Of a DNA stretch of 64,000 bases, positions 45,757 to 64,000 are shown in pieces (position 1 is the stretch's first letter; each line of letters starts with the position of its first letter). This DNA comes from an uncultured Gemmatimonadota bacterium. GTDB taxonomy: Bacteria > JAAXHH01. The notes below the pieces were generated by a model. It had not been told where the DNA came from. It saw nothing but the letters and a program-made list of their open reading frames with translations, and ran no database searches. The stretch lies in assembly GCA_951812955.1 (NCBI GenBank), contig OX638340.1, positions 3,232,001 through 3,296,000 on the forward strand, written 5' to 3'. The translations under genes were made by a program, and so were the position numbers.

Positions 45757-45761
45757 CGAGC

Positions 45762-48191: not shown

Positions 48192-48226
48192 AGACGTGAA
48201 GTTACCACAGGAAGAAAGGATACAGC

Positions 48227-49420
48227 ATGACCACCGAAGAGATCATCGCCCTGGAGGAACAGTACATCGCGCCGACCTACGTGCGCCCGCCCGTCGTGTT
48301 CGACCGGGGCAGCGGCGTCTACGTCTACGATCTCGAGGGCCGGCGGTATCTCGATTTCCTCGGCGGTATCGCGGTGAATTCCCTGGGCCACGGGGTGCCC
48401 GAGGTCATCGGCGCCGTGGCCCAGCAGACCGCGAAACTGATGCACATTTCCAACCTGTACCACACCGAGCCCCACGTGAGACTCGCGAAGTTGCTCGTGG
48501 ATAATGCCTTCCCGGCCAGGGTGTTCTTCTGCAACAGCGGGTCGGAGTCTATCGAGGCGGCCCTGAAATTCACCCGCCGCTGGGCGTCCGAGGCGGGCGG
48601 GGAAGCGAAGCACGAGATCGTGACTTTCGAGAATGCCTTTCACGGCCGCACGTACGGCGCCGTCAGCGCCACGGCCCAGCCCAAGTACCACGAGGGCTTC
48701 AAGCCCATGGTACCCGGCATGGTATACCTCCCGCTCAACGAGATCGAACCCCTCGAGAAGGCGATTACGGAGGAGAAGACCGCGGCCGTCATGGTGGAAC
48801 CTGTCCAGGGCGAGGGAGGCGTCAATCCCGCGCACGTGGAATTCCTGCAGCATCTGCGCAAGTTGTGCGACGAACGCAAGGTCGCCCTGATTTTCGACGA
48901 AATACAGTGCGGGCTGTGCCGCACGGGCAAGCTCTTCGCCTACCAGCATCACGGGATCGAACCGGACGTCATGACCCTGGCCAAGCCGCTAGCCGGCGGT
49001 CTGCCCATCGGCGCGGTCATCATGAAGCCGCACATCGCCGAGGTCCTCAAGCCGGGCATGCACGGTTCCACGTTCGGTGCGAACCCGGTGGCCTGTCACG
49101 TAGCCCACGCCGTCGTCAGCAAGATGATCGAAGAGGGACTGGCCGACCGGGCCGTGGAAATGGGCGGGATGCTGACGGACGGTATAAGGGCGCTGGCCGA
49201 AACCCACGGCGACATCAAGGACGTCCGCGGCGCCGGGTTGCTGATCGGCGTGGAATTCGAGGGCAAGGTCGACGCCATCCTGGGCGCCTGCCGGGAGGCG
49301 GGCCTGATCATCGGGACGGCCGGCGAGAACGTGCTCCGCTGCGCGCCGCCTCTGGTCATTGAACAGCAGCACGTGGACGAAGCGCTGGGGATCATCGGCG
49401 GGGTACTGGACGCGCGGTGA
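48227..49420 (+). CDS. argD: acetylornithine aminotransferase (class III PLP aminotransferase)
   Basis: …FDEIQCGLCRTGKLFA… PLP-lysine region; GxSGSEAIE motif. Confidence 0.9.
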   Translation: MTTEEIIALEEQYIAPTYVRPPVVFDRGSGVYVYDLEGRRYLDFLGGIAVNSLGHGVPEVIGAVAQQTAKLMHISNLYHTEPHVRLAKLLVDNAFPARVFFCNSGSESIEAALKFTRRWASEAGGEAKHEIVTFENAFHGRTYGAVSATAQPKYHEGFKPMVPGMVYLPLNEIEPLEKAITEEKTAAVMVEPVQGEGGVNPAHVEFLQHLRKLCDERKVALIFDEIQCGLCRTGKLFAYQHHGIEPDVMTLAKPLAGGLPIGAVIMKPHIAEVLKPGMHGSTFGANPVACHVAHAVVSKMIEEGLADRAVEMGGMLTDGIRALAETHGDIKDVRGAGLLIGVEFEGKVDAILGACREAGLIIGTAGENVLRCAPPLVIEQQHVDEALGIIGGVLDAR

Positions 49421-49473
49421 GCCAGCCGCGGAGGGTTAGCGGTGCCGCGGTGAGTTGCCTTCGCCGCGGTGAG
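49411..49473. repeat. 11-bp repeat x3-4 (gccgcggtgag) = re-copied 3' terminus of argD including TGA
   Basis: cgcgcggtgag (gene end) is followed by ccgcggagg, gccgcggtgag and gccgcggtgag with short spacers. Confidence 0.7.
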
Positions 49474-49514
49474 TCACCTGCGAAGCGTAGAGCATCTAAT
49501 AGAATGGGAAAGTC

Positions 49515-50879
49515 ATGACCGACAGCCGGGACATAGCACTCAAGCAACTGATGGACGATTTCCATGCTTCGATCGACGTGGACCGCCGATTGTTTCGGGT
49601 GGACATCCGGGGCAGCATTGCCTATGCCCGGGGCCTGGTACGCATCGGTGTGCTCACCGGTGAGGAAGGCCGGACGATCGAAGATGCGCTGGCGGAGATC
49701 GAAGGTGAGATCGCGAGCGGCGCTTATGCGCTGACCCGCGATCTGGAAGACATCCACATGGCGGTGGAGAAACGCCTGATCGAGAAGGCGGGTCCGGTGG
49801 GAGGCAAGTTGCACACGGGCCGGAGCCGCAACGACCAGATCGCCACGGACGAGCGCCTCTATCTACGCGAGGTGGTGGACGACATCGCCGGGCGGATTAG
49901 AGGTTGCCAGGAAGCCCTGCTGGCGCTGGCCGAGCGCACGGTGGACGTCGTCTTCCCCGGGTACACCCACCTGCAGCAGGCGCAGCCGATCCGGTTCGCC
50001 CATTACGCGCTCTCCCTGTTTTTCGGACTTCAGCGCGACCGGGAGCGCCTGGCGGACTGCCGGAAACGGATCAACATCCTGCCCCTCGGCGCCGGAGCGA
50101 TGGCGGGCAGCGCCTTTCCCATCGACCGGGCGTTTCTGGCCGAAGAACTCGGTTTCGACGGGTTGTCGCCCAACAGCATCGACGCGGTGAGCGACAGGGA
50201 CTTCATCGCCGAATTCCTCGCCGTCTGCACGATGTTGATGATCCACATCAGCCGGGCGTGCGAGGATCTGGTCATCTGGTCATCCACGGAATTCGGATAC
50301 ATCACGCAGCATCCCCGGCTGGCGACGGGCAGCAGCATCATGCCGCAAAAGAAGAACCCGGACGCCGCCGAACTGCTCCGGGGCAAGGCCGGGCGCGTCG
50401 TGGGCGACCTGGTTTCCCTCGTCACCATGCTCAAGGGCCTGCCCCACGCGTACAACAAGGATATGCAGGAAGACAAGGAACCGCTCTTCGACGCCATCGA
50501 CACGGTGACCGTCGCGCTGACTGTCTACACTGCGATCTGGGAGACCTTGGAAGTCAGGGAGGCACGCGTAAACCGGAGCATGGACGACGCCATGCTGGCC
50601 ACGGACCTGGCGGACTTCCTGACGCGATGCGGCGTGCCCTTCCGCGAGGGGCACGGTACCGTGGCCGCGCTCGTGGACGAGGCCGCAAGCAGGGGTTGCA
50701 GCCTGCGGGATCTGCCGCTCGCTTTGTACCAGCAGTATTCGGAACACTTTGATGAAGCCGTGATCGGGCAGCTCAGGTTCGACGACAGCACCGACATGCG
50801 CGCCTTACCCGGCGGAACCGGAAGGAACTCCGTGCTGCGCCAGTTGGAACAAGCCCGCGATATCCTGGCGGGCGGATAA
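49515..50879 (+). CDS. argH: argininosuccinate lyase
   Basis: Fumarate-lyase signature region (GSSIMPQKKNPD). Confidence 0.9.
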   Translation: MTDSRDIALKQLMDDFHASIDVDRRLFRVDIRGSIAYARGLVRIGVLTGEEGRTIEDALAEIEGEIASGAYALTRDLEDIHMAVEKRLIEKAGPVGGKLHTGRSRNDQIATDERLYLREVVDDIAGRIRGCQEALLALAERTVDVVFPGYTHLQQAQPIRFAHYALSLFFGLQRDRERLADCRKRINILPLGAGAMAGSAFPIDRAFLAEELGFDGLSPNSIDAVSDRDFIAEFLAVCTMLMIHISRACEDLVIWSSTEFGYITQHPRLATGSSIMPQKKNPDAAELLRGKAGRVVGDLVSLVTMLKGLPHAYNKDMQEDKEPLFDAIDTVTVALTVYTAIWETLEVREARVNRSMDDAMLATDLADFLTRCGVPFREGHGTVAALVDEAASRGCSLRDLPLALYQQYSEHFDEAVIGQLRFDDSTDMRALPGGTGRNSVLRQLEQARDILAGG

Positions 50880-50901
50880 GCCCTGGAAGCAAAGGAGCGG
50901 G

Positions 50902-51495
50902 ATGGCCATGAATAAAAAAGACATGTCCGGGATGCCGGAGTCGAACGGTAGCGAAACAATCATCCGCCCGGCCGTGATCGGGGACGTTCCCGAAATCATG
51001 GAAATCCTCGAGCCCTACATCGAAGAGGATATCCTCCTGCCTGTGTCGGTCTACCGCCTCTTCGAGCACATCCGGTACTTCGTCGTCGGCGAACGCGATG
51101 GCCAGGTGATCGGATGCGGATCCCTCGTGATCATATGGCACGACCTGGCGGAGGTACGGTCGCTGGCCGTCCGGAGAGGCTGCCATGGCGGCGGCATCGG
51201 CGGGCGCATCGTCGATGAACTGATCGCCGAGGCGGAGGAGCTGGGTGTCGCCCGGGTCTTCGCCCTGACCTACGAGACCGGTTTTTTCGGCCGCCACGGG
51301 TTCGAGGTAGTCGACCGTGATACGCTCCCGCACAAGGTATGGAAGGACTGTACCAACTGCGCCCGTTTTACCCACTGCGACGAAATCGCCGTGGCCCGGA
51401 CGCTGATCCCCGAGGACCAGCGCGCGCCCGAACCGGCCTTGCCGGCCATGCAGCAGGATCCCACCCTGATCATGCCTTCGCCCGCCCCGCGGTAA
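50902..51495 (+). CDS. GNAT-family N-acetyltransferase (short-form N-acetylglutamate synthase candidate)
   Basis: GNAT acetyl-CoA motif RRGCHGGGIGGRIVDEL; located directly after argH. Confidence 0.55.
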   Translation: MAMNKKDMSGMPESNGSETIIRPAVIGDVPEIMEILEPYIEEDILLPVSVYRLFEHIRYFVVGERDGQVIGCGSLVIIWHDLAEVRSLAVRRGCHGGGIGGRIVDELIAEAEELGVARVFALTYETGFFGRHGFEVVDRDTLPHKVWKDCTNCARFTHCDEIAVARTLIPEDQRAPEPALPAMQQDPTLIMPSPAPR

Positions 51496-51498
51496 CCT

Positions 51499-52716
51499 GT
51501 GATTAAGCGCCAGAAAGTGAACGCGTCCGGACGGCTTCCCATGTCGAACCACGTGATCGAAGCGGCGGCACAGCTCAGGTGGTGGCTGCGGCTTCCCCCG
51601 ACCAACCTCATCGACCGGGGCGACCACGTCCGTTTCCGGTACGCCCTCTACCTGATGATCCACCAGGTCGCCACCGTGCTCTACGGCATAAACGGGCTGC
51701 CCGAAAGTATGTACTATCCCTCGCGGCTCGAGGGTGCACGAAACCGCCTGGACGGGTTGACCCGGGCGCCGGAACACGCGGGCTCAATCCTCTGGACACT
51801 GGCGACCGAACGCGATCCGGAGAAAGCGTGGGCGGCCGCGGCAGGACTGATGCGGGATACCCTGGCATTGCTGGAAGAATCAGCGGATGGGCGTGGTTCA
51901 ATGGGTTGGGAAGTCGAGGAAGGATCATTCAAGCCGGATCAGTCTCGGAATCCCGATGATCTATACGCACTGGCCGCCGAAATCGCTGAGCGGCTTCGCC
52001 TCCTCGAGAAAGCAAGCGCCGTGGCTCTGGGCGGATCCCTGGGGAGGGGTTACGCAGACCGCCAGTCGGATATCGATCTGCTCTTTTTCGGGCCGAGCAT
52101 TCCCCGTGAGGTCGATCGCCGCCGGCTGATCTCGGCCTGGCCGGACATTCAACATGGACCCCTGGTCGAACCGGCCTGCGACAGCGTGGTGCTCGATGGG
52201 GCGATGGTCCATATACGCTACTGGACCAGGCAGACCGTGGAAGACATGCTGGCGGCAATTCCCAGGCCACCGGTACAGCGGATCCTTGCAGAAGAGTTAC
52301 AGAAATGCCACGTCTTGATCGATCCGGACGGAAGGCTTCTCGCGTGGAAAGGCGTTTTGCATCACATTCCATCGGAATTGGTCACGGTTATTTACGAAGA
52401 AGCGCGGGGAAGGCTGCCCGCTTTTCGTAAGCAGTGGCAGAAGGCGCAGGAGTCCGATGACCGGATCCATCTCTACTGCCTGGCCAACCAGGCCGTGAAC
52501 GATTTCCTGATTGCGCTGTATATCCGGAATGGGCGGTTTCTGAGCACGCCCAGATGGATTCACCTTGATACGCACGCGTTCGATGTCGGTCTGCCGGAAC
52601 TGGAATGCAGATTGGCTTCGTTTGTGGACGGGATAGACGACCGGAAAGATACTGCGGCGAGATGGCGCGCGCTTGAGGTTTTGTGGGGGAAGTTGGCGAG
52701 TTTGCCGCCTTCATAG
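51499..52716 (+). CDS. nucleotidyltransferase-domain protein (Pol-beta-like NTase fold + helical C-domain)
   Basis: ALGGSLGRGYADRQSDIDLLFF is the minimal NTase GS…DxD motif. High-GC, host-like composition; this is the last host-composition gene before the AT-rich island. Confidence 0.5.
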   Translation: MIKRQKVNASGRLPMSNHVIEAAAQLRWWLRLPPTNLIDRGDHVRFRYALYLMIHQVATVLYGINGLPESMYYPSRLEGARNRLDGLTRAPEHAGSILWTLATERDPEKAWAAAAGLMRDTLALLEESADGRGSMGWEVEEGSFKPDQSRNPDDLYALAAEIAERLRLLEKASAVALGGSLGRGYADRQSDIDLLFFGPSIPREVDRRRLISAWPDIQHGPLVEPACDSVVLDGAMVHIRYWTRQTVEDMLAAIPRPPVQRILAEELQKCHVLIDPDGRLLAWKGVLHHIPSELVTVIYEEARGRLPAFRKQWQKAQESDDRIHLYCLANQAVNDFLIALYIRNGRFLSTPRWIHLDTHAFDVGLPELECRLASFVDGIDDRKDTAARWRALEVLWGKLASLPPS

Positions 52717-53471
52717 GCCTTATGGTCGTCCGTGGTTGAGATTCGAAATGCTCTGCGCACATCTCGGAAATTACATCGTCTACGCGAAGGCTGAGATACG
52801 GCTATCTAAGGCGAGTCTGCTTCTGGAACAAAATAGACTTCGAGATTCAGGTTGAGAAATCGACTAATACCAGTAAGCAAGTTCCATGTAGGTATCCGTT
52901 TGACGTGTTCGGCTCTTGCGTTTGATCCACGCGTATTGTGCATTGCTACAATCATCGATCATCGGATTGCCTCTTATCGGGGCTGGATCGAATCCACGAC
53001 ATCGATCGAAGGAGTGGATTTCATGGGATGGCTCTATGAAGCCAAAAAGAGACGGCACAGGGTAGAAGGACGTGCTGAGGGCCGGAGAGAGTGACCAGGC
53101 CTACAGGGAGTGGATCAACAGGGAACAAGAGGCTGGTATGCTTGGCACACCGAAGCAAAGTCCTCCGCCGTTTCTTGATGATAGAATCTGCGATCAGGCC
53201 AACGGCTCGGATCATTGACACGGCTGGTTTTTCGATAGTCTCGGAAATCCGGGTATTGGCCTTTGGGGGACAGGATGGTTTGGCCAGTCGGATCCCCAGG
53301 ATTATTAGTAACGAATTCGGCAATGAGTCGTTTCTACGTCTGGCTCTGAACTTGCCCTATCCGGCTCAGATGTGACTACCACGTATACTGTCCTCCCCTC
53401 ATGCGAAATCGCTCGACATCGACCCGAACCTCTTCCAGAGCCTTCGCGATTCCAACCTAAAGGATGGGGCG

Positions 53472-53627
53472 CTATAAGTATGATTTCCGTTCTATTTTGT
53501 CCAGATAGGTTTCGGTCAGCATCGACCCGTTGGTGACGATCGAGGTGGTCATCCCATATCCTTTCACCATTTCAATCAGATCCGCCAACTAGGGACAGAG
53601 CGTTTGTTCGCCACCTGCGAAACTCAT
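53472..53627 (-). pseudogene. radical-SAM enzyme fragment (MoaA/QueE-like GGE-motif region) with in-frame stop
   Basis: Minus-strand translation [45 protein letters not shown] resembles the radical-SAM FxGGEPLL…TNG region. There is no CxxxCxxC upstream, and stops flank the fragment. Confidence 0.35.
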
Positions 53628-53941
53628 TTCTTCGGTCCTTGCGTTCTGCAACGTTGCCATTAGTGGCGGCATTGTTGGCTATAGAATGGACATCTACGTA
53701 GTACGGGGTTACGGCAGTCGAGGGCACGGCTCCGTTCTTCGGTCGGAAGCAAACGAGGAACCATCTAGTCGCTATTAAGGCTGAGGTGGCATTTTCAATG
53801 GCGAGCCGACACGCGGACTGGATGAAACAGGGTCGGCGAGATTATGAATACTACATCCGTGCGGAAGCGAAATGCGCACTGGCGAACGCCGCGCAGGTCA
53901 TCGACTTCTGTGAAGGTATTCTGGCTGGACCGCTCTCGACT

Positions 53942-54257
53942 GATGGAGCGTCTCAATCGAGCGGTCCGAACGCTGGGTGACCGCCACCCCGAAATCGAAT
54001 CGATCTATCTGTCCGGCTCGTTGGCGCGGGGAGACGCTGTACCCGGCAGCGACAGCGACGCGGACCTGCTGATCTTGGTGAGTCATGCCACCGAGCCGTT
54101 TCGGGATCGACCGGTCTGTTACCACACGACGGGTATGGGCGTGGACGTCGACGTGGTGGTTTACACGCGAGAGGAACTGGACGCGCTGCTGGAGACGGAC
54201 AACGAATTCGCACGGCGGGCATTGCGTGAGGGTGTCCGGTTGTTTCCGGTTCGCTGA
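53942..54257 (+). CDS. minimal nucleotidyltransferase (MNT/antitoxin-like NTase)
   Basis: MERLNRAVRTL...IYLSGSLARGDAVPGSDSDADLLILV is the classic MNT GSxxRG…DxD motif. ATG at 53942. Confidence 0.55.
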
Positions 54258-54425
54258 AGCGACCGGATACCGTGGTCTTTCTGGCCATGGTGGCAGTAAA
54301 CGGTTCGATCTTTCGGAGTTTGGGCGTTACGCGCTTTCAATCGAGATGGCCTTCGATTACGTTATAGTCGACAAGCTGTCAGGCGTCCCCAAAGGGATAA
54401 TCGCCCTGGATCTTGGAGGCGTTCG

Positions 54426-54829
54426 ATGATTAAGAATGAAAGGCAGTATTTGATTACGAAGGCTCAGGCTGCACGGTTCGTCCGCACTCTTGAAAGCCTG
54501 GATGGCGATGACGGTGTACATGATGTCATTCATAAAGCGCAACGGGATGCCGTACGAAGCCAGATCTCGGATATGAAAGCAGAGATTTCTGAGTACGAAT
54601 CGTTGAAGGCAGGGAACTCAAACCAGATCAACTTAAAACAGTCAACGAATTACCGGTGCTGCTAATCAAAGCGAGGATCGCTCAAGGCTTAAGCCAGAAA
54701 GATCTGACCGATCGGCACGGCTTAAAGGAACAACAAATACAGCGATATGAAGCCACGGACTATGTCTCCGCCGACTACCGCGACTCAGGGAGGTCGTCGG
54801 GGCCTTGGGAATCGAAGGAAAAACAATGA
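54426..54829 (+). pseudogene. HigA-like antitoxin (N-terminal domain + XRE helix-turn-helix) disrupted by a frameshift near 54620
   Basis: Frame A gives MIKNERQYLITKAQAARFVRTLESL…AEISEYESLK and stops at 54665. Frame +2 continues with PDQLKTVNELPVLLIKARIAQGLSQKDLTDRHGLKEQQIQRYEA (an XRE HTH) to the TGA at 54829. Confidence 0.5.
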
Positions 54830-54982
54830 ATTAGAATGAAACAGTCTCCGCATCTTAGTGGCCACATCAATCAATTTAACATGTTTCAACCGGTATACAT
54901 TCACACAAATATGCAAGCCATGTATCCAATGAAACAGTAGAGCCGTGGCTACCACAGCGAGCAGCAACTAGATTTGTTTAGG

Positions 54983-57900
54983 TTAGGCCATTAGATGCTC
55001 CAAAAGATTGTGGCTAACAGACCTGACTGTTCCCGTAGAAAGATCTAAAGCAACCTCCGCCATACCCACACCTTCGGATTGGGCGTTTATCTCTGAGCGC
55101 ATCCAAGCTCTTAGCCGTTCCGGCTGTTCATAGGTATCCAAAAGAAAGGAAGGGTAATTCAATTTTTCGAAGCTTGTGGGTTGGGTTTCTAGTCGGTTGA
55201 AAGCAAGCTCACGTACTTTCTTGTCACGTGTGAAACGGGCAGCTACGGCGCGCAAGCACGAAGGCAAAAACTCCCAGATATCACCACGGAGGTTCGACAT
55301 TCTCGTCTCAACTCCGATTACGAATTCATTCGGAGATGCGATTGCGGCTAACAATTGTATCTGAGCCGGAAGCAGGAGTTTAGGTTTTTCAGCTTGAACA
55401 CGGGTTCTCAGTTCTTTCCATGCTTGCGAGTCTGGCCAGCCTGCACTAAGGGCGATAACAAGCGCATTCGAATTGTCATCTAGAGTTACACAAGACTTTA
55501 GAACTTCGTAAGTTTTGGTATCGTTGGAAAATTGTTCAGCGAGAATTTCTGCAGCTACTATGCCAGGAGCAGTTTCGATCCAACTGCCTACATGGTGATA
55601 TTGAACTAAGGGGAGGCAAAGCTCGCGTAGTTGTTTCGTATTTCGCAATTGACTAGAATAAAGTTGTAGCATTGGTGCAGTCGTCATACTCTGACTAGCT
55701 TGTTCAACAATCTCGTCTGCTTTATCAGAATCTGTGGCGTGGGCAGCCATTTCCGTTAGGAATTCATCCGACATCCATCCTATTTGTTCCCAAATACTAT
55801 CACCGAACGCCTGAGTTATCCTATTCCAATGGCTGACCAAGTGTTCGGCTAATCGTAGGTTAGTGCTATGGACTACGCCAAAGCCTCGGTCATTTGTCTC
55901 ACATTCTGACCACACAGTTTTTACGATGTCAAGTCGGTCAAGCTCAAGAAGTACGGAGAAGGCCGCTTGGCGCCGGTCCCCGTAATCCGGTCCTATAACA
56001 AGCAACCCCTTTGTCAGTTTTTCAAGAAGTTCAGATGAGAGTTCATCTCGTTGAATGACTGATGCTGCGAAGCCGATTGCAGCTGCCGTTTTAACATTTA
56101 CATCTATATCTTCATCATAATCTGACAGAAGTTTATATGCGAAATCATCGTCTGGACCTAAGCGTGCAAGTCGATCGACGACAGTCAAACGGAGTTGTAC
56201 GGGGAGTGGACTACTTAGTTTGAGCAGTTCACAACGTATCTCATCACAATTTAGGTAGGCATTTGCAACGGTATTCAAGTCCCCTGCACGATTCCGTAAC
56301 TGATGAAAAGACAAGTCACGTACCTTGGGATGATTAGGAAAGTGTTTAATCAAGTCACTTACGCCCCAGTATGGTACGCCTGATGGTACCTCCCCCGAGT
56401 ATTTCTCTATAGCTGCTGGCACTACTTCCTCGTCATGCTCCTTTACTCCAAGATTGACCAATCCTATCAAAGCACCTCGGGCTGTTGAACCCGATTCATT
56501 GTTAAGAATCTCTAGTAAACGCCGCCGACATAGTACTTTATCGAGAAGAATCTCTGGCAGAAGATGTGCGGCCTTTATCGCAACATCACTATCAGCAAGA
56601 TTTAACAAAGCAGTAGCAACTTCTTTATCCTCCATACCCCATCCTAGTAACAACCACCGAGCTTGGTCCTTTGATATAACACCAGTATCCTCGTCCGGTT
56701 TAAGCAAAATACCCTTTGCCTGTTCTGATCGAGAGATGAGGCAAAGTTCGAAATCCCAAAATAACCTTCCGTTTTCTTTTTTAATTTTCCGCTCTAGCCA
56801 GTCGTCAACGGCTAGTCCTAATATCTGATGACCAGCGAATGCCTCAACGAGCGGTCCCCAGTTACCGCCAAGGCCAATTAAATGGCTAGGATAGTCTTCA
56901 GTCCGAAACAAACCTGCAATGGCCTCAGCAACCTCATCATCTTGCGGAAAACCTTCCAGCAGAATGATTCCGACGGCTCCAGAATCAACTATTACTTTAT
57001 CACCATTTCGTTCGATACTCCGTATCGCACTGTTTTTGACTCCAATGTCACCTGGCCAACCCTTGAGAAGAGCCCGAATTCGGTCGTCTTTCCAGCACCA
57101 TGATGCAAAGTGAAAATCTCGTGCAAGTTCTACTAATGTCTCGTAGTCATCCACATCCTGTTCTTTGCGTTTCACTCGATGAATTAGTGCGACACTTTGT
57201 AATGCAACATCGGCAGATGACCGCGCGTGCTTCAAGATTTCAGGAAGCCGATGATTAGTTTCCCAACCAAGGCAAAGCGCATGCAAGGAGCAGGCAAGCA
57301 GTCGCGGTTCAGAAGGAATCAATAGTAAGTCAAACAGCCATTCTGCAACAGAAGGATCACCTCCGTAAGCTCTTGCGAGTGATTCTGCTGCTATTCGTTG
57401 ATTCCAAGCTTCTTCATCAATAAAGCCACGCATTAATATCGCTTGGCCCTCGCTAGAAATACCCCATTTCGAGGCGGACTCATACATTCCGTGACGATAT
57501 TGATGTCGCAAGGGAAACCAGCGTTGAATACGGGACTCTACATGTGATCGCAGTATCTCGGATTCAAGTCCATCAAGTGCAAACTCAATAAGTCGTTCTC
57601 GAGTACCCGTGCGAACTCCGGTTTCTACAATCTCAAACGTCTCTTCCGCCAGTTTTCTGGCGACACTTGGCGAACAATGGAGATCACCAAAGGCTACTTC
57701 GGCAAGAAAGCTTTGCCGAGATAACTCCATTTCAGCCGCTAGTGGCATACTTTCGATAATCGCGACGAATTCATCCACCTCACCATACCGCGAGTTAAGA
57801 TGGCACAGGCACAAAAACACATCGTGCCACTGAGGATTCTTAAATCGTTTCTTCAATGCTTCCTTTTGCTGTTCAAATGGGAGATTAGATAGGTGTTTTG

Positions 57901-59872
57901 CAGCGAGGAATTCTTGTAAAGAGCGATGTAGAAAGCCGATCTCTATTGGTGATTTCTCGATGAGAACCCCAACTGCCTCGGTACCAATAGTGAGTAATTC
58001 TTCTGCTATACTATGTGCACCTTCCGGTTTTTTATGTAGGTGAGTTGAACAAAATCCCTGAAGCACATCCTTAGCAATGACTCTATCTAGAGCATCGCTC
58101 CCCGCTGAATCGTGGGTTTCCCAAGCCAACCTAGCCAATGCCCGTTCACGTGTTTCCTGTTGCAAATGTGAGTTGGTCCCGCGTGCGTGAACTGACTTTT
58201 CACGTCGCTTGGGCTGTTCGTCTAGCAGCAGACGTGCTAGTTCCTCGTATGCTTTGAATCTGCTGCGGGGAAGGCTCACTTTCTGAATGGCAAGAGCAAT
58301 TAGGCCATTAAGTAGTAAAGGCACCTTTGCCAGGCGGGATATCCGTAAATCACGGTGAAGGTCTTGTATGAATTGGGTGGCTTCGGATTTCGCCCTTTTG
58401 TGTCGCATGGCGATAGAGTCGCTATCTTCGCCAGGTACAGCAAGTGTGTAGGACCGATGCATGAACCATCGTTCAGCCAAGATTCCTTGTTGTTCATCTG
58501 TCAACCCAGAAAGCTGGGCTACACGCCACCTACTGCTTAGTCCACCGATCCGCGTATAACCTAGAGGACGACTGCTGACGATTGCTGGTACATTCCGTTC
58601 TCCCACGAATTGTTCGAGCAAACCAAGCGCCGTCCGAGCATCCGTGCCGTTACTCCACTCATCAAGGCCATCTACAAATAGCATTAATCTCGAATCTTCC
58701 AAAGCCTGCTGAACCAATGTAATTAGAGCTGTCTCAGCGGAAACTTTTTGAAGCCAAGCAGTGAGAACATTTGCTAACGAACACCCTGTTTCAGATTCGC
58801 TGACAAGTCGCGTCCACATGGCAAACGGAACCCAAACAGGTAAATATTGTCCCCAACGAAGAGCACTTGCCTCATAGCGCGGATCGGTACTAAGTAGATC
58901 AAGTAATACACAACGAAGCAAGGTACTCTTGCCGATACCTGGGTCTCCAAGTACAACCGACTGATCGGAGTCTGCAAGCCAGTCAATCGCTGAGCGGCGA
59001 ACTAGCGAGGGTCGAGGCAAAACTTGCGGTCTGCGGGATTGAGTAGAGTCTTCGTTTCCATCGGTGCGGAGTCGTCCTTTATTTTGATCTTCTATCGATT
59101 GATTAGTTGTTTCAATGTGGGCAGCTTGTTGTTCTTCCAGAATATCGGGAGGCACAAATCGATCGGCTAAACTGAGGGGCTGAAAGTCAGGTTTTATGGA
59201 ACCTGTTACGGACGGGATACCGGGATCGGAAATCTCGAAATGGTGAGTATAGCAACGCCGAAGAAGCTGTCGCAGTTGTACGACCTGACCAGGTTTTAAT
59301 CGGCGACTCGACAGTTTGGCAGCAGCTTCTTCGCCACAGAATTCCTGCACCCACTCGCGTCCAAAGAAGTCGTCTACTAAATCTGGATGGTTTTTTAGAT
59401 GTTCAGAAATCTGCGTGACACCAAGTGGTAGGAATTGGATGTTGCGTTCACGGAGGCGATCGCCTTGTGATTCTAATTCTATTGCAAGCTTTTTTTCTTC
59501 GGTCTTCACCGAAACTGCTAGTACAAACTTATCGGTTTTAGGTGCCCATGAGCCTTTTAAAAAACCAGTAACCGCAATGTCGATGAGATCCGAGCTGAAT
59601 TCCTTGTATCTTTTGCACTGCCAAACAGTATATCTGGATGATTCCAATGTGCGTACGTAGATATCTATACCTTCTTGATCCTGACCTGGAATCCCATACT
59701 CTTGACATCTTTCCACTTTTCCACCGCGCTGTGCGAGGCGAGCACAAAGTCTTTGAAAGAAGTTCCACGGTAAGAGGTTTAGTGGGAGTTCCTGTAATCT
59801 AGTTCTAATGGGATGAGAGACAAATGATTCAGATGGTACCCACACACTTGTGTTTTTTTTTGATTCTTCCAT
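54983..59872 (-). CDS. NACHT-domain STAND NTPase (bacterial NLR-like) with N-terminal Mrr-like PD-(D/E)xK restriction-endonuclease domain and long C-terminal alpha-helical repeat region
   Basis: ATG at 59872 with AAGGAT RBS (track TTG at 59875). The N-terminal domain matches the Mrr_cat pattern (FFQRLCARLAQ…GQDQEGIDIYV…TVWQCKRY…LIDIAV). Walker A VVLGDPGIGKSTLL, Walker B LMLFVDGLDEW and the NACHT-specific AIVSSRP motif are present. ~1,100 aa of helical repeats follow. AT-rich composition. Confidence 0.8.
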   Translation of the reverse strand: MEESKKNTSVWVPSESFVSHPIRTRLQELPLNLLPWNFFQRLCARLAQRGGKVERCQEYGIPGQDQEGIDIYVRTLESSRYTVWQCKRYKEFSSDLIDIAVTGFLKGSWAPKTDKFVLAVSVKTEEKKLAIELESQGDRLRERNIQFLPLGVTQISEHLKNHPDLVDDFFGREWVQEFCGEEAAAKLSSRRLKPGQVVQLRQLLRRCYTHHFEISDPGIPSVTGSIKPDFQPLSLADRFVPPDILEEQQAAHIETTNQSIEDQNKGRLRTDGNEDSTQSRRPQVLPRPSLVRRSAIDWLADSDQSVVLGDPGIGKSTLLRCVLLDLLSTDPRYEASALRWGQYLPVWVPFAMWTRLVSESETGCSLANVLTAWLQKVSAETALITLVQQALEDSRLMLFVDGLDEWSNGTDARTALGLLEQFVGERNVPAIVSSRPLGYTRIGGLSSRWRVAQLSGLTDEQQGILAERWFMHRSYTLAVPGEDSDSIAMRHKRAKSEATQFIQDLHRDLRISRLAKVPLLLNGLIALAIQKVSLPRSRFKAYEELARLLLDEQPKRREKSVHARGTNSHLQQETRERALARLAWETHDSAGSDALDRVIAKDVLQGFCSTHLHKKPEGAHSIAEELLTIGTEAVGVLIEKSPIEIGFLHRSLQEFLAAKHLSNLPFEQQKEALKKRFKNPQWHDVFLCLCHLNSRYGEVDEFVAIIESMPLAAEMELSRQSFLAEVAFGDLHCSPSVARKLAEETFEIVETGVRTGTRERLIEFALDGLESEILRSHVESRIQRWFPLRHQYRHGMYESASKWGISSEGQAILMRGFIDEEAWNQRIAAESLARAYGGDPSVAEWLFDLLLIPSEPRLLACSLHALCLGWETNHRLPEILKHARSSADVALQSVALIHRVKRKEQDVDDYETLVELARDFHFASWCWKDDRIRALLKGWPGDIGVKNSAIRSIERNGDKVIVDSGAVGIILLEGFPQDDEVAEAIAGLFRTEDYPSHLIGLGGNWGPLVEAFAGHQILGLAVDDWLERKIKKENGRLFWDFELCLISRSEQAKGILLKPDEDTGVISKDQARWLLLGWGMEDKEVATALLNLADSDVAIKAAHLLPEILLDKVLCRRRLLEILNNESGSTARGALIGLVNLGVKEHDEEVVPAAIEKYSGEVPSGVPYWGVSDLIKHFPNHPKVRDLSFHQLRNRAGDLNTVANAYLNCDEIRCELLKLSSPLPVQLRLTVVDRLARLGPDDDFAYKLLSDYDEDIDVNVKTAAAIGFAASVIQRDELSSELLEKLTKGLLVIGPDYGDRRQAAFSVLLELDRLDIVKTVWSECETNDRGFGVVHSTNLRLAEHLVSHWNRITQAFGDSIWEQIGWMSDEFLTEMAAHATDSDKADEIVEQASQSMTTAPMLQLYSSQLRNTKQLRELCLPLVQYHHVGSWIETAPGIVAAEILAEQFSNDTKTYEVLKSCVTLDDNSNALVIALSAGWPDSQAWKELRTRVQAEKPKLLLPAQIQLLAAIASPNEFVIGVETRMSNLRGDIWEFLPSCLRAVAARFTRDKKVRELAFNRLETQPTSFEKLNYPSFLLDTYEQPERLRAWMRSEINAQSEGVGMAEVALDLSTGTVRSVSHNLLEHLMA

Positions 59873-60376
59873 CAATGTAAATCCTTAAACCGATCGTCGA
59901 TGATGTTACCTCGATTTCGTGGACGATTTACCATTTGGGATTCAGGCTGTTTGCTTGAAGCTCCTTTCGTAGGTTGATGGTGAGAGATATCCGGGGGAAG
60001 AGTGCTTTCTCCAAGTATTGTAGAAGTCCTCGATGTATTCGAACAGTGCGAGTCTAGCCTCGGTCCCTGATTCGCTAGACCGACCGTATGTTGCAAGTGG
60101 AGAAACCTGAGAAAGTTATAGGTAGGGTTGCAAATACTATAATAAACATAGGCAATCACTACGTGGATTCGCCATCTGCACACAACCAAGGCACGCGTTC
60201 GAACGGGTTTTGGTTTCCAGTGATTAAACGATTCTTATATCGTCCTCGATATTCGAATTTCCGCAACAATATCAATTCGATATACCACTGACTTAGGCGT
60301 AAAGAATCCAATAGTGCATCCATCGAAATGTGACCATGCCTACGTTCAGGGTGAACGATATCATTACGAATCTTTG

Positions 60377-61444
60377 TTATCGCGGTCGGACCGTCCGTCC
60401 ATCCCTTCTTTTAGCAATCGCTTCCAAGTGTTTGCAGTGTGACGGAATTTTTGCTTCGATTTCTAATTCTTCGAGTGTCTTTTTTAACGATTTACCGAAA
60501 GAATACACCGTTTCCTGATTGATAATGTAGGACAGAGATTCTAGGGCAGCCTGAGTAAGAACGATTCCCACGTGAATGGCGCTGCCAGCACTATTCACAT
60601 ACCAATCTATAGCCCGACGAATGGCATCTTTCCATTCTTCCTTGGTATACAATTCCCAGAACCCACGAAAAGATCCGGAAAGACTGCCTCCCCCGTCATG
60701 TTTCGCGAGCCACGTGTGCCTGCTTTCTTGCCAGTGAGTTACGTACTTCGTTCCCCATAGTATGGACTGCTCCCCTCCACTTACATCAATTCCTTTTACA
60801 GATGTAAGACCACACGCCGTGCCACGAGCGAATGAGAAAAAGGTCCCTAATCCGTCTATTAAGGGTAATACGTCACCCACGGTAAACACTTTGTTGTTCA
60901 GAGAGTAAATTGCTCCAGTGTGGGTTATGGCATATCCTCCACTTTGTTTTAGGATCTTCTGATTCTCAAAAAAATTGCGATTTTCTTTAATCTCAATCCG
61001 CCAATGATCGACTTCTAGGATTGCGAACCCAAGTCGTCGATATACTCCATCTATTTCTATGTGTTTATCTTGTGCACCATAAAACGTTATGAAATTGAGT
61101 ATACCGAATCGCACAGATTTAAGTCGGACATCGGACCGAGCTACTGTACAAGGACTCTGAACAGGGCCTAAGGAACCTTTGAATCCAATTACTGAATCCT
61201 TATTGAGACTACATGACTTCAGCTTTACTCGAATCCTTCCGCCGCTCTTCAAGGAAATAAAAAAAGGTTCATACATAAATCTCTGTCGCATAAACAATGG
61301 ATATTCATCGGAATCGATAGAAAACTGTAATCTGGGCGACAGTCGAAGAACCGCGCGAACCTTACAAGGCGTGGATAGACATTGGTCTTGTATGTGAGTG
61401 ATACTTGTATCGTCAAGAACAACTGGTTCATTCGGTTTGCACAT
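60377..61444 (-). CDS. hypothetical 355-aa protein, co-directional between the methyltransferase and NACHT genes (possible nuclease/effector)
   Basis: ATG at 61444, 44 bp downstream of the MTase stop. AT-rich; no recognisable family. A weak D…E-x-K-like pattern (IEIDGVY…LEVDHWRIEIKE) is present. Confidence 0.45.
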   Translation of the reverse strand: MCKPNEPVVLDDTSITHIQDQCLSTPCKVRAVLRLSPRLQFSIDSDEYPLFMRQRFMYEPFFISLKSGGRIRVKLKSCSLNKDSVIGFKGSLGPVQSPCTVARSDVRLKSVRFGILNFITFYGAQDKHIEIDGVYRRLGFAILEVDHWRIEIKENRNFFENQKILKQSGGYAITHTGAIYSLNNKVFTVGDVLPLIDGLGTFFSFARGTACGLTSVKGIDVSGGEQSILWGTKYVTHWQESRHTWLAKHDGGGSLSGSFRGFWELYTKEEWKDAIRRAIDWYVNSAGSAIHVGIVLTQAALESLSYIINQETVYSFGKSLKKTLEELEIEAKIPSHCKHLEAIAKRRDGRTVRPR

Positions 61445-61487
61445 AACCTACCGATTATCCTTCAATCACCGTGAAAAGATTCTTAAA

Positions 61488-63977
61488 CTACTCCATCGCC
61501 ATAATGATTCTCGCAATCCGCCTAGCGGTTTCCGTAAAGTACTTAATCTCTTGGGGATTGAGCGCACGCCCGATCACATTGAACTCGCGGTAGGATAGCC
61601 ATTTCTTAAGTACCTGATAGCCGCCAAGCTTGTAGTTCCAGATTTTGGTGGGTACGTTATGCCAGAAGGCGCGGTCGTTCAAATACACGTCCACAGTAGT
61701 TGCACCTAGTGCGGAAATCGCCGTACCTAGGACGGCGCGTTCGTCAGCCGTGTATTTGCGTTCGACGATGCGGCCTTTGCCCGGCATTACCGTGTCGCCC
61801 CGTCCGTAGTGACCCCACCTCGCAGTCACTGCGAAATCATCATCGGTCATATTGCTACCGTGGCTAGTTGTAGGCACGGCAAGCGAAGCGATCTCAGGTG
61901 GTATCGCACCCTGAGTAACGCCCGGTACCGGGGTGTCGGGATCAAATAGACAGGCTAGTTCACGACCCCGGTCGGCCGATTCAGCGAATAACTCAGCGGC
62001 ATTTTTGGTATCCCCATTGGGCCAGCCCGGTAGTGGTATACGCGGCCAGTCCATTGCAAGCGCCCCGGCATTAGCTTCACGATATGTCGGATTGTGGAGG
62101 ATGGTAAGGATGTTGTGGAATAAGTCCTCAGGACTCGCTCGTATACGATGGAGATAGCGTTTGCCAGCCTCAGATAAGTTTGGTAGGTAATGTAATACGT
62201 TGTCACCAGCCCCAAGGACGTCGTTGTTAAGATAGATGGGGAACCATATCGCAGTACGTTCGATTAAATGCATAGCACCAAAGTGTCGGGTAACAATGGT
62301 CTGTGCCTCCGTTACGTCCTTACGAAGATGCTGAGCTGCACACAGCCACAGGTTTTCCTCGAACACCTGTCGCTTGTAGTCGGCACGCTTGTCGTTAAGG
62401 AGTTTAGTCTCTGCTTCCCAGTAAAGCCATCGGATATCGAAGGGGCGGTACGCGAAGCGAATGAACCCGCCTTCGTTCGGTCCGCCGCGTGCGAGTAGTG
62501 TTTCGCGCACAGAGTGAGCGTCAAAATGCCTCGCGGTTTTCATGATAATAGGATATCGCTGGGCAATCTCGTTGTGGCTCAAATTCACGTCGAAATAATC
62601 GGAGACGCGGGCCATTAGTCGATCAAGGTCGATATCGACAAGAAACGAGTCCCGGTTGGTCTTTGCTCCAGGAAATGAGATCGGATAAATATCGGGTAAC
62701 GTAGGCCAGTTGAACCAGCCCTCACTCACCGCCGTACGCACGAACGGCAGGCCAAGCGGCAAAGATGGCTCGATGCGGTCATAAAGTACGTTTGGTTCCG
62801 CATGCGCCGTCGCCATCAGTTCCTTGCGCTTTGTACGTCCCCACAGATGGCGAAATCCGATCTCCACTGCGGGGGTATGATTGTACTTACGTACCAGAGT
62901 TGCAATGGCCGTACCCACCTGAATGCCAACCGGATTGTCCGGCGTCGAAAAGATACTTGGGTCTGGCGAGCCATCGGGAGCGACCTTTCCGGTCTTATAT
63001 TTGTCGCCATTTAAGCAGTCGATCCGAATCGAGTCGAAAACCTTGAGGAAGCGCTCCCTCATACCAGCGAACGACAGCCCGTCGAGCCAGGAATAATTGG
63101 AAATGAAACAGATTACCCCCTGACCGGTTCGCCCAGCAATCCGTCTTTCAGCCATACGGAAGAATCGGATGTATAGATCGATCAGTCCCTTGCTTTTTTC
63201 CATCCGTACTTTGCTTGTCTTACGATAGGCTTCGAAGAGTTCGCGTTCTTCATCAATCGTTACACCGGCAAAGGCATTATAGGGTGGATTACCCAAGATC
63301 ACCAAAACCGGAGTCTCCTGCTTCACTCTCTCGGCCCGGTCACGCTCTTCCTCCAATTCAGGGAACGGCAGCACATTCTTAGTTCGCGGCTCCCATCCAG
63401 TCAGAGCGTTTGTTAGGAAGACTTGGGCTCGTTCCATCCCGTCATCGGAAAACGTCGCATCAAGTGCCTGCATGGTCAACCCGATCTGAAGATGCGATAC
63501 GACAAAAGGCGCGGGCATGATCTCGAAGCCAAACACCCGTTCTAATGCCGCCTGCTTTACCTGCGAACCGACAAGCGCACCGACTCCTTTGTTTTCAAGA
63601 TTGGAAGCAATATTGCGTAACACTTCTGCCAGATAGGTTCCGGTACCGCAGCATGGGTCGAGCACATATACGTTTTCCGCAGCTAGTCCATCTGGAATCC
63701 CCAGATCGTCTTTGAGCGCTTTGTCCACTCGTGTAACCATATAGCGCACTACTTCGATTGGTGTGTACCATACGCCTAGTTGCTTACGCAACCCAGGGTC
63801 GAATGCCTGTAGAAAGGGCTCGTAGAAATAGGTTACCGCTTCGCCTTCATTGAATCGGGTGAAGAAGGTAGTGCGGTCCACACGGTTAAGAGCAGCGGAT
63901 GTCCAATCCAACACTTCCACTAGGCCTAGAGGCTCAAGGCGAGCAGGCTGTGAGAGTTGCTGGAACAGAGATTGCAT
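61488..63977 (-). CDS. gamma-class N6-adenine DNA methyltransferase, PglX/MmeI/Eco57I-like (no N-terminal nuclease domain)
   Basis: YFYEPFLQAFDPGLRKQLGVWYTP (motif X), VLDPCCGTGTYL (motif I, FxGxG) and ILGNPPYN (motif IV, NPPY) in gamma order, with a ~550-aa C-terminal target-recognition region. The start is 23 bp from the window end, so any upstream partner genes are not visible. Confidence 0.8.
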   Translation of the reverse strand: MQSLFQQLSQPARLEPLGLVEVLDWTSAALNRVDRTTFFTRFNEGEAVTYFYEPFLQAFDPGLRKQLGVWYTPIEVVRYMVTRVDKALKDDLGIPDGLAAENVYVLDPCCGTGTYLAEVLRNIASNLENKGVGALVGSQVKQAALERVFGFEIMPAPFVVSHLQIGLTMQALDATFSDDGMERAQVFLTNALTGWEPRTKNVLPFPELEEERDRAERVKQETPVLVILGNPPYNAFAGVTIDEERELFEAYRKTSKVRMEKSKGLIDLYIRFFRMAERRIAGRTGQGVICFISNYSWLDGLSFAGMRERFLKVFDSIRIDCLNGDKYKTGKVAPDGSPDPSIFSTPDNPVGIQVGTAIATLVRKYNHTPAVEIGFRHLWGRTKRKELMATAHAEPNVLYDRIEPSLPLGLPFVRTAVSEGWFNWPTLPDIYPISFPGAKTNRDSFLVDIDLDRLMARVSDYFDVNLSHNEIAQRYPIIMKTARHFDAHSVRETLLARGGPNEGGFIRFAYRPFDIRWLYWEAETKLLNDKRADYKRQVFEENLWLCAAQHLRKDVTEAQTIVTRHFGAMHLIERTAIWFPIYLNNDVLGAGDNVLHYLPNLSEAGKRYLHRIRASPEDLFHNILTILHNPTYREANAGALAMDWPRIPLPGWPNGDTKNAAELFAESADRGRELACLFDPDTPVPGVTQGAIPPEIASLAVPTTSHGSNMTDDDFAVTARWGHYGRGDTVMPGKGRIVERKYTADERAVLGTAISALGATTVDVYLNDRAFWHNVPTKIWNYKLGGYQVLKKWLSYREFNVIGRALNPQEIKYFTETARRIARIIMAME

Positions 63978-64000
63978 GATAGGAGCACGTAAATGCCACA

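Follow-up and report, generated by a model that had tools for sequence, protein, structure and literature searches.

The minus-strand genes at the right-hand end of the window, a stretch of 64,000 nucleotides from an uncultured Gemmatimonadota bacterium, are best explained, with moderate confidence, as a two-gene defense module, made of a restriction-modification (R-M) enzyme and a HEPN gene, accompanied by an unrelated NACHT neighbor. The original prediction had correctly placed three co-directional minus-strand open reading frames (ORFs) in this region (Table 1), but it had described the first as a nuclease-less methyltransferase and the second as a protein without a family, and neither description held.

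Table 1. Positions of the genes, motifs, and blocks discussed in the text
Feature	Position	Strand	Description
Single-chain Type IIG/IIL R-M gene, 3' ~75%	61488..64000	-	Gamma-class N6-adenine methyltransferase and Type_ISP_C target-recognition domain
Methyltransferase ORF from first ATG	61488..63977	-	829 aa
Methyltransferase motif YFYEPFL	63810-63830	-	
Methyltransferase motif GVWYTP	63759-63776	-	
Methyltransferase motifs I and IV	63279..63659	-	Motif I DPCCGTG, 63639-63659; motif IV NPPY, 63279-63290
YopA-family, ApeA-like HEPN gene	60159..61444	-	428 codons with frame restored; interrupted by a 1-nt deletion
Annotated 355-aa ORF	60377..61444	-	44-bp gap after the R-M gene
Frameshift site	60403..60415	-	Window GCTAAAAGAAGGG, L027 GCTAAACAGAAAGGG; one base missing in or beside an A-run
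HEPN catalytic motif R-N-D-I-V-H (Rx4H)	60351..60368	-	Downstream of the frameshift
rve_2 transposase/integrase core, degenerate C-terminal fragment	59945..60094	-	Pfam rve_2, 9.5e-7; rve_3, 1.9e-4
STAND NTPase, NACHT gene	54983..59875	-	1,630 aa, 4.9 kb; weak Mrr-like N terminus, NACHT domain, long helical C terminus
Possible degraded HTH gene	54426-54829		
Low-GC block, 8.8 kb	52697..61512	.	HEPN gene, rve remnant, NACHT gene, small NTase and HTH genes

A Type IIG restriction-modification gene cut by the window edge

The methyltransferase reading frame continues, still open, to the edge of the window. No in-frame stop is present between the ATG at position 63977 and base 64000, and the seven codons preceding this ATG align to residues 277 to 283 of a 1,114-aa homolog, the first six of them (WHLRAP) being identical to its residues 277 to 282. 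When these codons are included, the ORF shows 67% identity to residues 277 to 1111 of the same homolog, and nearly all of the best 120 homologs have a length of about 1,110 to 1,140 aa. The absence of an upstream stop, the conservation of the residues before the ATG, and the size of the homologs (about 1,113 aa) indicate that the ORF is cut by the window and that its ATG encodes an internal methionine, and not a start codon located 23 bp from the window end, as had been proposed. Around 276 N-terminal codons, which in the homologs correspond to the nuclease region, are predicted to fall beyond base 64000. This additional N terminus carries in the homologs a conserved GHPDFGL...GVVEVK, a nuclease-type motif of the PD...EVK form. 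The claim that the methyltransferase has no fused nuclease domain is not supported: the family consists of single-chain R-M enzymes, and the 5' end of this gene is outside the window.

The visible 2.5 kb of the ORF is uninterrupted and contains all four methyltransferase motifs noted before, with motif I preceding motif IV in the directly read translation, including the D/E-P-x-x-G-x-G and NPPY signatures of gamma-class N6-adenine methyltransferases. Pfam identified N6_Mtase (2.3e-8) and, at residues 429 to 803 of the ORF, Type_ISP_C (4.4e-37). Among PDB sequences, the methyltransferase and the target-recognition domain (TRD) match DrdV (7lo5; 7e-35), LlaGI, and LlaBIII, and the DrdV match runs through the TRD, which is fused at the C terminus. 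The nuclease-methylase-TRD layout fits two curated Type IIG profiles of PADLOC, REase_MTase_IIG PDLC03610 (1.3e-82) and PDLC03631 (2.4e-70), both aligned from about position 267 to 271 onward (from about 267 of 1,096 positions in the case of PDLC03610). By its sequence, the gene encodes a DrdV/Type ISP-like Type IIG/IIL R-M enzyme in one polypeptide, which differs from Type ISP enzymes in having no helicase module.

A PglX/MmeI lineage had been suggested for this gene, which is nearer to DrdV and Type ISP. It belongs to the same broad gamma-class m6A methyltransferase clade as PglX of BREX systems, but an identity as PglX was rejected, as NCBIfam BREX_2_MTaseX scored 20.7 bits, far below its cutoff of 400, and PADLOC PglX matched at 1.2e-8. 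Neither pglZ, brxC, nor brxL was found downstream in the window or on either side of the R-M gene in a syntenic locus (L032), which confirms the earlier views that PglZ and BrxC are absent downstream and that this is not a BREX locus. Membership in the MmeI family, which requires five domains, was also rejected: the only one detected was MmeI_Mtase, which with 22.9 bits stayed below its cutoff of 27, whereas the genuine MmeI partners of HEPN genes in loci L003 to L006 match all five (MmeI_N/hel/Mtase/TRD/C). The N-terminal nuclease region is also a distinct sequence family, since a profile comparison of the family N terminus with MmeI_N (hhalign) was not significant (probability of 2%).

A frameshifted HEPN gene of the YopA family

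The 355-aa ORF is the N-terminal part of a 428-codon HEPN gene interrupted by a 1-nt deletion, as revealed by comparison with the closest relative (L027). The remaining 83 codons, at the C-terminal end, continue undamaged in a different frame, from 60410 to 60159, and the Rx4H motif, lying past the frameshift, is not in the frame of the 355-aa ORF. Homologs of the complete protein have 413 to 461 aa, and the R, N, and H of the R-N-x3-H motif are invariant across 22 family members. The protein carries the Rx4-6H motif in a four-helix fold typical of the HEPN superfamily; its N-terminal half is beta-rich, and it has no ATPase domain.

Far from having no recognizable family, the protein belongs to one cataloged in Pfam. 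Precomputed matches to YopA_M (PF26308) and YopA_C (PF27216) were found in 28 of the 29 homologs, including one 100% identical to the window protein (P0001), the lone exception being a 229-aa fragment with YopA_M alone (P0019). The family is homologous to YopA of SPbeta, a Bacillus subtilis prophage: a tblastn search with one family member (P0021) matched yopA of SPBc2 (7e-25), the homology covering about 80% of their length. The relation to ApeA is looser. The Pfam profile ApeA_NTD1 has a gathering threshold of 25.5 bits, which P0007 alone barely passed (25.9 bits; 8e-6), while P0002 reached 21.5 bits and the window protein 13.1; for HEPN_Apea, P0002 scored 0.025 (15.5 bits versus 24.4). The window protein is accordingly a relative of ApeA and not a strict member, and searches by sequence and by fold gave no match to ApeA PDB entries. 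We found in the literature no biochemical or genetic data for any YopA-family protein, and no functional study of SPbeta YopA. The HEPN protein is most likely an R-M-linked abortive-infection RNase. Of the roles previously considered for it, cognate endonuclease or new effector, that of an effector, as opposed to a housekeeping protein, is kept, and that of a DNA endonuclease is not, given its RNase-like HEPN type.

The 1-nt deletion, which removes the HEPN motif, and the annotation of the R-M product in the source at just 810 aa (P0030) indicate that the copy of the module in this genome is probably decayed; the annotated length suggests that the R-M gene, too, is disrupted in its 5' part. 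The chances are about equal that the locus is a nonfunctional relic, with the nuclease part of the R-M enzyme lost or split, a HEPN pseudogene, and at most an orphan methyltransferase, a reading compatible with either interpretation of the intact genes. A possible degraded HTH gene in the same region fits such a relic, and so does the state of the assembly, which is not generally indel-rich, considering that all nine host ORFs tested in the window have complete domains. Nevertheless, decay is not certain, because the missing base could reflect a mistake in the assembly: it falls within or beside an A-run, a classic site of long-read indel errors, and the sister contig L027, whose name ends in "_3x" (read as about 3x coverage), has obvious assembly indels, three of them within 300 bp. 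Moreover, the NACHT ORF (4.9 kb) and the visible part of the R-M ORF are intact.

Linkage of HEPN and restriction-modification genes

We defined as a close subfamily the relatives with at least 37% identity to the window HEPN protein. In all seven of its loci with a visible upstream gene, the HEPN gene lies directly 3' of a co-directional Type IIG enzyme, which is of the ISP_C type in L001 (33-bp gap) and of the MmeI family in L003/L007 (4-bp overlap), L006 (68 bp), and L008; the other Type IIG enzymes are those of L027 (48 bp), L004, and L005. In L028/L029, the HEPN gene is part of a Type I operon, where it is flanked by hsdS and hsdR and shares 4 bp with the latter, and on an Escherichia coli IncY plasmid a distant YopA member adjoins hsdM-hsdS. 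The pairing of HEPN and R-M genes recurs beside several kinds of restriction systems. The composite module that the original prediction had drawn from the methyltransferase and its downstream gene survives as this recurring pair, without the NACHT part.

Distant family members (24 to 35% identity) are mostly devoid of adjacent R-M genes; SPbeta yopA, for instance, is flanked by genes for an HTH protein and a RES-domain protein and not by R-M genes. Conversely, most R-M homologs have no YopA neighbor (more than 8,000 R-M versus 29 YopA in a word-indexed search). The coupling is thus not obligatory and may amount to no more than co-location, in which case the YopA-like gene would be a stand-alone, ApeA-like abortive-infection gene embedded beside or inside R-M loci without functional coupling. 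This would be in line with the action of canonical ApeA as a single gene, with the distant YopA members that stand alone in mobile or defense islands (L030, L031, and L035-L037), and with the interchangeable type of R-M partner (MmeI, ISP_C type, or Type I). Furthermore, the HEPN gene belongs to an 8.8-kb indel block set beside the resident R-M gene, and unrelated defenses are commonly embedded in R-M loci (bioRxiv 10.1101/2024.01.29.577857). We nevertheless consider such independence rather unlikely. At every locus of the close subfamily with visible flanks (the seven with Type IIG enzymes plus L028/L029), the R-M gene is on the same strand, at a distance of -4 to 68 bp, and the YopA-like gene always comes right after a TRD-carrying gene, in at least five independent genomic contexts. 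Such placement is tighter than loose co-location in islands.

The NACHT gene as a separate neighbor

The NACHT gene does not follow the 355-aa gene directly: a 284-bp spacer, common to the window and L027 and containing the rve_2 remnant, separates it from the HEPN gene. Its product matches Pfam NACHT (4.6e-10), with an N-terminal Mrr_cat match below cutoff (0.005); PADLOC gave no match for this protein, and NCBIfam EruA scored 31.5 bits, its cutoff being 1000. Among the 33 loci examined, a homolog was found in L027 alone. The window and L027 share the 8.8-kb low-GC block with the HEPN gene and the NACHT gene, which is missing from L032, the orthologous locus of a Gemmatimonadetes MAG, as seen by blastn synteny, gene table, and GC profile; in L032, about 120 bp lie between the aligned R-M segment and the aligned DUF4037 segment. 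The surroundings are a variable defense hotspot beside arginine-biosynthesis genes.

The transposase remnant in the spacer, the restriction of the homolog to L027, and the lack of the block in L032 argue for the NACHT gene being a separate neighbor, an independent STAND-type defense gene outside the R-M/HEPN module, which would have arrived in the same block as the HEPN gene. The three-gene system originally envisaged, namely the joint action of a NACHT sensor, a methyltransferase without a nuclease, and an unknown protein serving as effector or endonuclease, is very improbable and has largely failed the test set for it in the original prediction, given the absence of the trio from other genomes: although the genes are co-directional with short gaps and the trio recurs in the same order in L027, that contig shares 80% DNA identity with the window over 9.1 kb and is thus the same island, giving no independent support; the trio is missing from L032 and from the nine other distinct YopA contexts examined, in none of which the YopA-like gene has a NACHT gene with it; a nuclease region is already present within the methylase family; and the "unknown" protein is of the HEPN type and not a DNA endonuclease.

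Proposed function and comparison with known systems

In the two-gene module, the R-M enzyme would comprise an N-terminal PD-(D/E)xK-type nuclease (beyond the window), a gamma-class m6A methyltransferase, and the Type_ISP_C TRD. By analogy with its family, it would methylate its own recognition sites and cut unmodified incoming DNA. The HEPN protein may be a latent RNase, its likeliest targets being tRNA anticodon loops or other RNA, as for ApeA and PrrC, and would be coupled to the R-M enzyme, adding a second layer of defense that acts by abortive infection. Two triggers can be envisaged. In a PrrC-like model, the R-M enzyme would hold the HEPN protein inactive until a phage block of restriction releases it; in an ApeA-like model, a small-molecule or DNA-breakdown signal would switch it on.

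The PrrC anticodon nuclease sits in the EcoprrI Type Ic R-M locus (hsdM-hsdS-prrC-hsdR). Both prrC and the window gene, whose RNase role is predicted, are HEPN-type genes in physical linkage with R-M genes; in L028, the relative has exactly the hsdS-hsdR position, and the window gene follows its R-M gene at 44 bp. In contrast to PrrC, the window protein has no ABC-ATPase N-domain and carries instead a beta-rich, ApeA-like N-terminal half, and its partner is a single-chain Type IIG enzyme, while that of PrrC is a Type I complex. An analogy to PrrC has been proposed for R-M-linked HEPN genes, as a second-line abortive response once restriction is neutralized, and the ApeA family was reported to be embedded in R-M operons in epsilonproteobacteria (PMC3710099).

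ApeA and the window protein share an N-terminal domain followed by a C-terminal HEPN domain with the Rx4H motif, and several YopA family members give weak, ordered Pfam matches, ApeA_NTD1 and then HEPN_Apea. ApeA (Ec1/Ec2ApeA) is reportedly one of the defense systems of Gao et al. 2020. The two proteins differ in length (about 428 aa for the window protein versus about 600 aa for ApeA) and in their Pfam families, the window family being filed separately. ApeA has been described as an Abi nuclease that cleaves tRNA anticodon loops and is activated by a ligand, for which it has a regulatory pocket (bioRxiv 10.64898/2026.01.26.701840).

Implications

For the window itself, the region is corrected to an R-M gene truncated by the window, a HEPN gene with a frameshift, and, next to them, an independent STAND gene. 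The R-M-linked HEPN pairing is a variant of a known theme, and one that is probably decayed in this genome. We suggest, tentatively, that YopA-family HEPN proteins could act as "guards" dedicated to restriction enzymes or as their second-stage effectors, sensing R-M inhibition or the DNA-breakdown products made by restriction and then shutting down translation. Such guards would carry the PrrC paradigm beyond Type I complexes, to single-chain Type IIG/IIL enzymes belonging to two unrelated families. If HEPN and R-M genes are truly coupled, Type IIG/IIL enzymes, among them the MmeI-type enzymes that serve as molecular tools, would gain a dedicated RNA-targeting backup comparable to PrrC, and YopA, a large uncharacterized family (about 3,800 representative clusters), would gain a testable function.

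The restriction-modification gene

The sequence bears out the three minus-strand ORFs of the original prediction and the 44-bp gap between the first two (see the table), and every methyltransferase motif quoted there is present. The first ORF carries an N6_Mtase domain and a strong Type_ISP_C target-recognition domain (Pfam, 4.4e−37). Its best PADLOC models are Type IIG restriction-methylase fusions (1.3e−82 and 2.4e−70), with the alignment beginning at about profile position 267, and the nearest solved structures by sequence are DrdV (Type IIL, 7e−35), LlaGI, and LlaBIII. The PglX/MmeI lineage originally proposed was not retained: the curated thresholds of both families were missed.

Judged from its reading frame, this ORF runs off the window edge, and the start once placed 23 bp from the window end did not hold up. 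The minus strand has no stop between the window edge and the ATG at 63977 (tgg cat tta cgt gct cct atc). The residues WHLRAP, encoded just ahead of this ATG, recur unchanged at positions 277 to 282 of a 1,114-aa protein from a Latescibacterota MAG, and with all seven pre-ATG codons the window protein is 67% identical to residues 277 to 1111 of that protein. A database search gave at least 8,000 homologs at E ≤ 1e−30; among the 119 best, the source genome's own copy left out, 106 are 1,100 to 1,149 aa long. The extra ~276 N-terminal residues of the full-length homologs contain a near-invariant GHPDFGL...GVVEVK, by inspection a motif of the PD-(D/E)xK type, which makes a nuclease the likely identity of the family's N terminus. 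The claim that the methyltransferase has no fused nuclease domain is thus not supported. We hold the assignment at likely, short of proven, because a profile-profile comparison with the N-terminal nuclease domain of MmeI, which placed EVK opposite EQK, was not significant (probability of 2%). In the source genome's annotation, the gene (P0030, 100% identical) has only 810 aa, implying some interruption in its 5′ part beyond the window.

Features of the window
Feature	Coordinates	Strand	Description
R-M ORF from first ATG	61488-63977	-	829 aa
Annotated HEPN ORF	60377-61444	-	355 aa; no Pfam match
Integrase/transposase core, degenerate C-terminal fragment	59945-60094	-	rve_2, 9.5e−7; in the 284-bp HEPN-NACHT spacer; common to L027
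NACHT gene	54983-59875	-	1,630 aa; NACHT, 4.6e−10 (Pfam)
N-terminal 300 aa of NACHT protein	58976-59875	-	Weak Mrr_cat/Mrr_cat_2 similarity (0.005/0.011), below cutoffs
Two overlapping small ORFs in different frames	54426-54829	+	Maybe halves of one XRE-type HTH regulator/antitoxin gene
Minimal nucleotidyltransferase	53844-54257	+	137 aa; NTP_transf_2, 3.8e−9; strand opposite to the defense genes
Second low-GC dip	44001-46000		GC of 0.455-0.489; small ORFs only, plus the tRNA call below
ARAGORN "tRNA-???"	44895-44968	-	Four-base anticodon

The downstream gene encodes a YopA-like HEPN protein

A word-indexed search with the 355-aa protein, described earlier as having no recognizable family, returned 29 homologs, mostly of 413 to 461 aa. 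At their C termini they carry an almost invariant I-R-N-x-x-V-H block plus a helical tail, neither of which the window ORF has. The missing C terminus is intact in another frame (KKGWTDGPTAITKIRNDIVHPE...VPWLCADGEST, ending at 60159), and the protein with the frame restored has 428 aa, equal in length to the homolog P0002. Precomputed Pfam matches assign the homologs to YopA_M (PF26308) and YopA_C (PF27216), yopA of the SPbeta prophage is homologous (7e−25), and a search with the family profile reached 3,780 representative clusters at E ≤ 1e−3.

HEPN domains with an Rx4-6H motif are metal-independent RNases. The R, N, and H of the C-terminal block are invariant in 22 members of the YopA-like family, several of which show weak, correctly ordered matches to ApeA_NTD1 (8e−6 for the homolog P0007, just above the threshold) and HEPN_Apea (0.025 among the members). 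AlphaFold models P0002 with confidence (pLDDT, 91.7; pTM, 0.91), the N-terminal half being β-rich and the C-terminal half helical; AF0298, AbiA, the sacsin HEPN, an AMPylated HEPN toxin, Csm6, and MtlR were named beside it in the family assignment. We conclude that the C-terminal domain is of the HEPN RNase type and that the protein is related to ApeA without belonging to that family in the strict sense. Foldseek found no significant match in PDB and BFVD, and the YopA alignment profile matched no ApeA among PDB sequences, where its sole match below an E value of 0.001 (8ga6, "THR6") was judged spurious. There was no match in PHROGs, and PADLOC gave only weak PDC-S58 matches (0.008). The suggestion that the 355-aa protein is the cognate restriction endonuclease was rejected, since the protein has both the motif and the fold of a HEPN domain and the R-M family brings a nuclease region of its own. 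The family also includes an alternative effector architecture: in P0152 (768 aa, from the profile search), YopA-like residues 374 to 762 are fused to an N-terminal Tle1-like phospholipase domain (PF09994, 1.5e−77).

Frameshift and probable decay of the island

In a DNA alignment with the closest relative, the island L027, the lesion in the HEPN gene is one missing base (GCTAAA[C]AGAA in L027, GCTAAAAGAA in the window, 60403 to 60415). We lean modestly toward real decay over an assembly artifact. The lesions, namely, the HEPN frameshift, the 810-aa R-M call, and possibly a split HTH gene, cluster in the island, whereas nine abutting host ORFs tested in the window all have complete, distinct domains, with no split genes and many long ORFs intact. 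An artifact is nevertheless plausible: the lesion lies in or next to an A-run, and such assemblies clearly do contain single-base indels like this one. At its R-M gene 5′ end (857 to 1160), L027 shows three of them in 300 bp, and an early TGA, relative to the intact ortholog in the Gemmatimonadetes MAG locus L032. We take these as probable assembly errors, the annotated 1,068-aa product being probably an artifact of a gene of ~1,114 codons; the name of the contig ends in "_3x," which we read as about 3x coverage. The notion that the L027 R-M gene lacks the PD motif was accordingly dropped, since its codons 1 to 81 lie in another frame (tblastn) and the DNA alignment shows the three indels. The window copy of the module is probably inactive, and its R-M part is cut by the window edge.

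The second half of the small-ORF pair has only subthreshold HTH_3 and HTH_25 matches, cut off at profile positions 31 to 35, and the pair is possibly another lesion of the island.

The NACHT gene is a neighbor in a putative variable hotspot

The stretch between about 52.7 kb and the end of the window has a GC content of ~0.45 to 0.52, down from ~0.63. The methylase-unknown-NACHT trio, originally proposed as a composite system whose co-occurrence could be checked across genomes, was found elsewhere only in L027, which matches the window at 80% DNA identity along 9.1 kb that reach from the window edge through the NACHT gene. This is the same island and therefore not independent evidence for the trio. 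No NACHT homolog was found in any other YopA context examined, and the integrase remnant separates the NACHT gene from the HEPN gene; the former is a neighbor and no component of the R-M/HEPN module, which leaves the composite system unsupported.

The window shares synteny with L032 (GCA_009842485.1) on either side. Its R-M gene is 78% identical, and its positions 11419 to 18429 match window positions 45655 to 52716 (DUF4037/NTase, acetyltransferase, argH, argD, argB, argC, and argR) at 78 to 86% DNA identity. Where the window has 8.8 kb (61513 to 52696; the YopA-like gene, the rve remnant, the NACHT gene, and small genes), L032 has ~120 bp, so the R-M gene is resident and the block is an indel; no direct or inverted repeats flank it. 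Upstream of the full-length R-M gene (3866 to 7859), L032 encodes a 540-aa unknown protein, an AAA_21/SMC_N ABC-type ATPase (351 aa), and a Schlafen AlbA_2 plus HATPase_c_4 protein (395 aa), which may be further defense genes of the same hotspot. Taken as a proxy for the region upstream of the window's R-M gene, they include no BREX gene, and the BREX thresholds were missed, in agreement with the original view that this is not a BREX locus. The synteny suggests a related Gemmatimonadota genome as the origin of the window and, for the R-M locus next to the arg genes, a variable defense hotspot.

The weak Mrr similarity of the NACHT (STAND) protein's N terminus, with its "GIDIYV...WQCKRYKEF" stretch, suggests a PD-(D/E)xK nuclease effector. 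PADLOC has no family for this protein, and PHROG 18297 (unknown function) matches its residues 514 to 684. No HEPN partner ORF was identified adjoining the 137-aa nucleotidyltransferase; L027 has a 96-aa NTP_transf_2 gene at the same relative place. L032 lacks the second low-GC dip in its syntenic part. Scans for promoters and terminators were uninformative, with fewer sites than in the shuffled controls.

YopA-like genes follow different restriction-modification genes

All relatives with at least 37% identity and visible flanks are codirectional with, and directly 3′ of, a gene for a restriction target-recognition domain. The upstream gene is an ISP_C-type Type IIG gene of 1,114 aa in L001 (33-bp gap) and an R-M gene of the window's type in L027 (48-bp gap). 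It belongs to the MmeI family in L003/L007 (all five Pfam domains, 4-bp overlap), in L004, L005, and L006 (68-bp gap), and in L008 (TRD and C domains, contig truncated; gap of 18 to 51 bp, as the start codon is not fixed). The MmeI-type partners keep the D-x9-E-x-K nuclease motif. The Type I operons of L028/L029 have the order hsdM, small gene, NTase::hsdS fusion, YopA-like gene, and hsdR, with a 4-bp overlap with hsdR, so that the YopA-like gene occupies the position of prrC in the Escherichia coli prr locus. In L028 (1083 to 3238), the operon also has an NTase_sub_bind gene (137 aa), and the NTP_transf_2::HsdS fusion has 581 aa.

A distant homolog (26.6% identity) lies just upstream of hsdM-hsdS on an E. 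coli IncY plasmid (L034; NZ_CP061756.1, 5944 to 13239), where the next genes along its strand are a small "transcription factor" gene, a Type I hsdM, hsdS, and two DUF262 (GmrSD-like) genes. Distant members (24 to 35% identity) mostly stand alone in integrase, TA, or SIR2/TIR islands or in SPbeta, and most homologs of the R-M enzyme, e.g., that of L032, have no YopA neighbor. The linkage thus characterizes a subfamily and is not obligatory for the R-M enzyme.

A candidate second layer of defense

The general theme of R-M-linked HEPN genes is already published, and YopA is a cataloged Pfam family. Linkage to R-M systems has been described for at least 16 HEPN clades, "ApeA/BMEI1217" was noted as embedded in R-M operons of epsilonproteobacteria, and a PrrC-like rationale was put forward for such embedded genes (PMC3710099). 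Literature searches, including YopA with SPbeta and MmeI with HEPN, found no description of YopA function or of a Type IIG/MmeI-type enzyme paired with a HEPN gene.

EcoprrI keeps PrrC latent until the T4 Stp peptide releases it (PMC3710099). ApeA is an abortive-infection tRNA anticodon nuclease with a regulatory pocket, which in Ec2ApeA binds 5′-phosphorylated deoxydinucleotides from DNA degradation (bioRxiv 10.64898/2026.01.26.701840), and it can also cut RNA-phage genomes (bioRxiv 10.64898/2026.03.20.713152).

The main rival explanation is plain hitchhiking, in which the YopA-like gene is embedded beside the R-M gene without functional coupling to the enzyme. Beyond the gene identities, motif conservation, and conserved adjacency observed here, we propose instead that the YopA-like protein would be a latent RNase, providing a second layer of defense tied to the R-M enzyme. 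It could be activated by a diffusible signal, e.g., DNA cleavage products, or by a coevolving contact with the target-recognition module. The partners come from three R-M architectures, and either trigger therefore fits better than one fixed interface.
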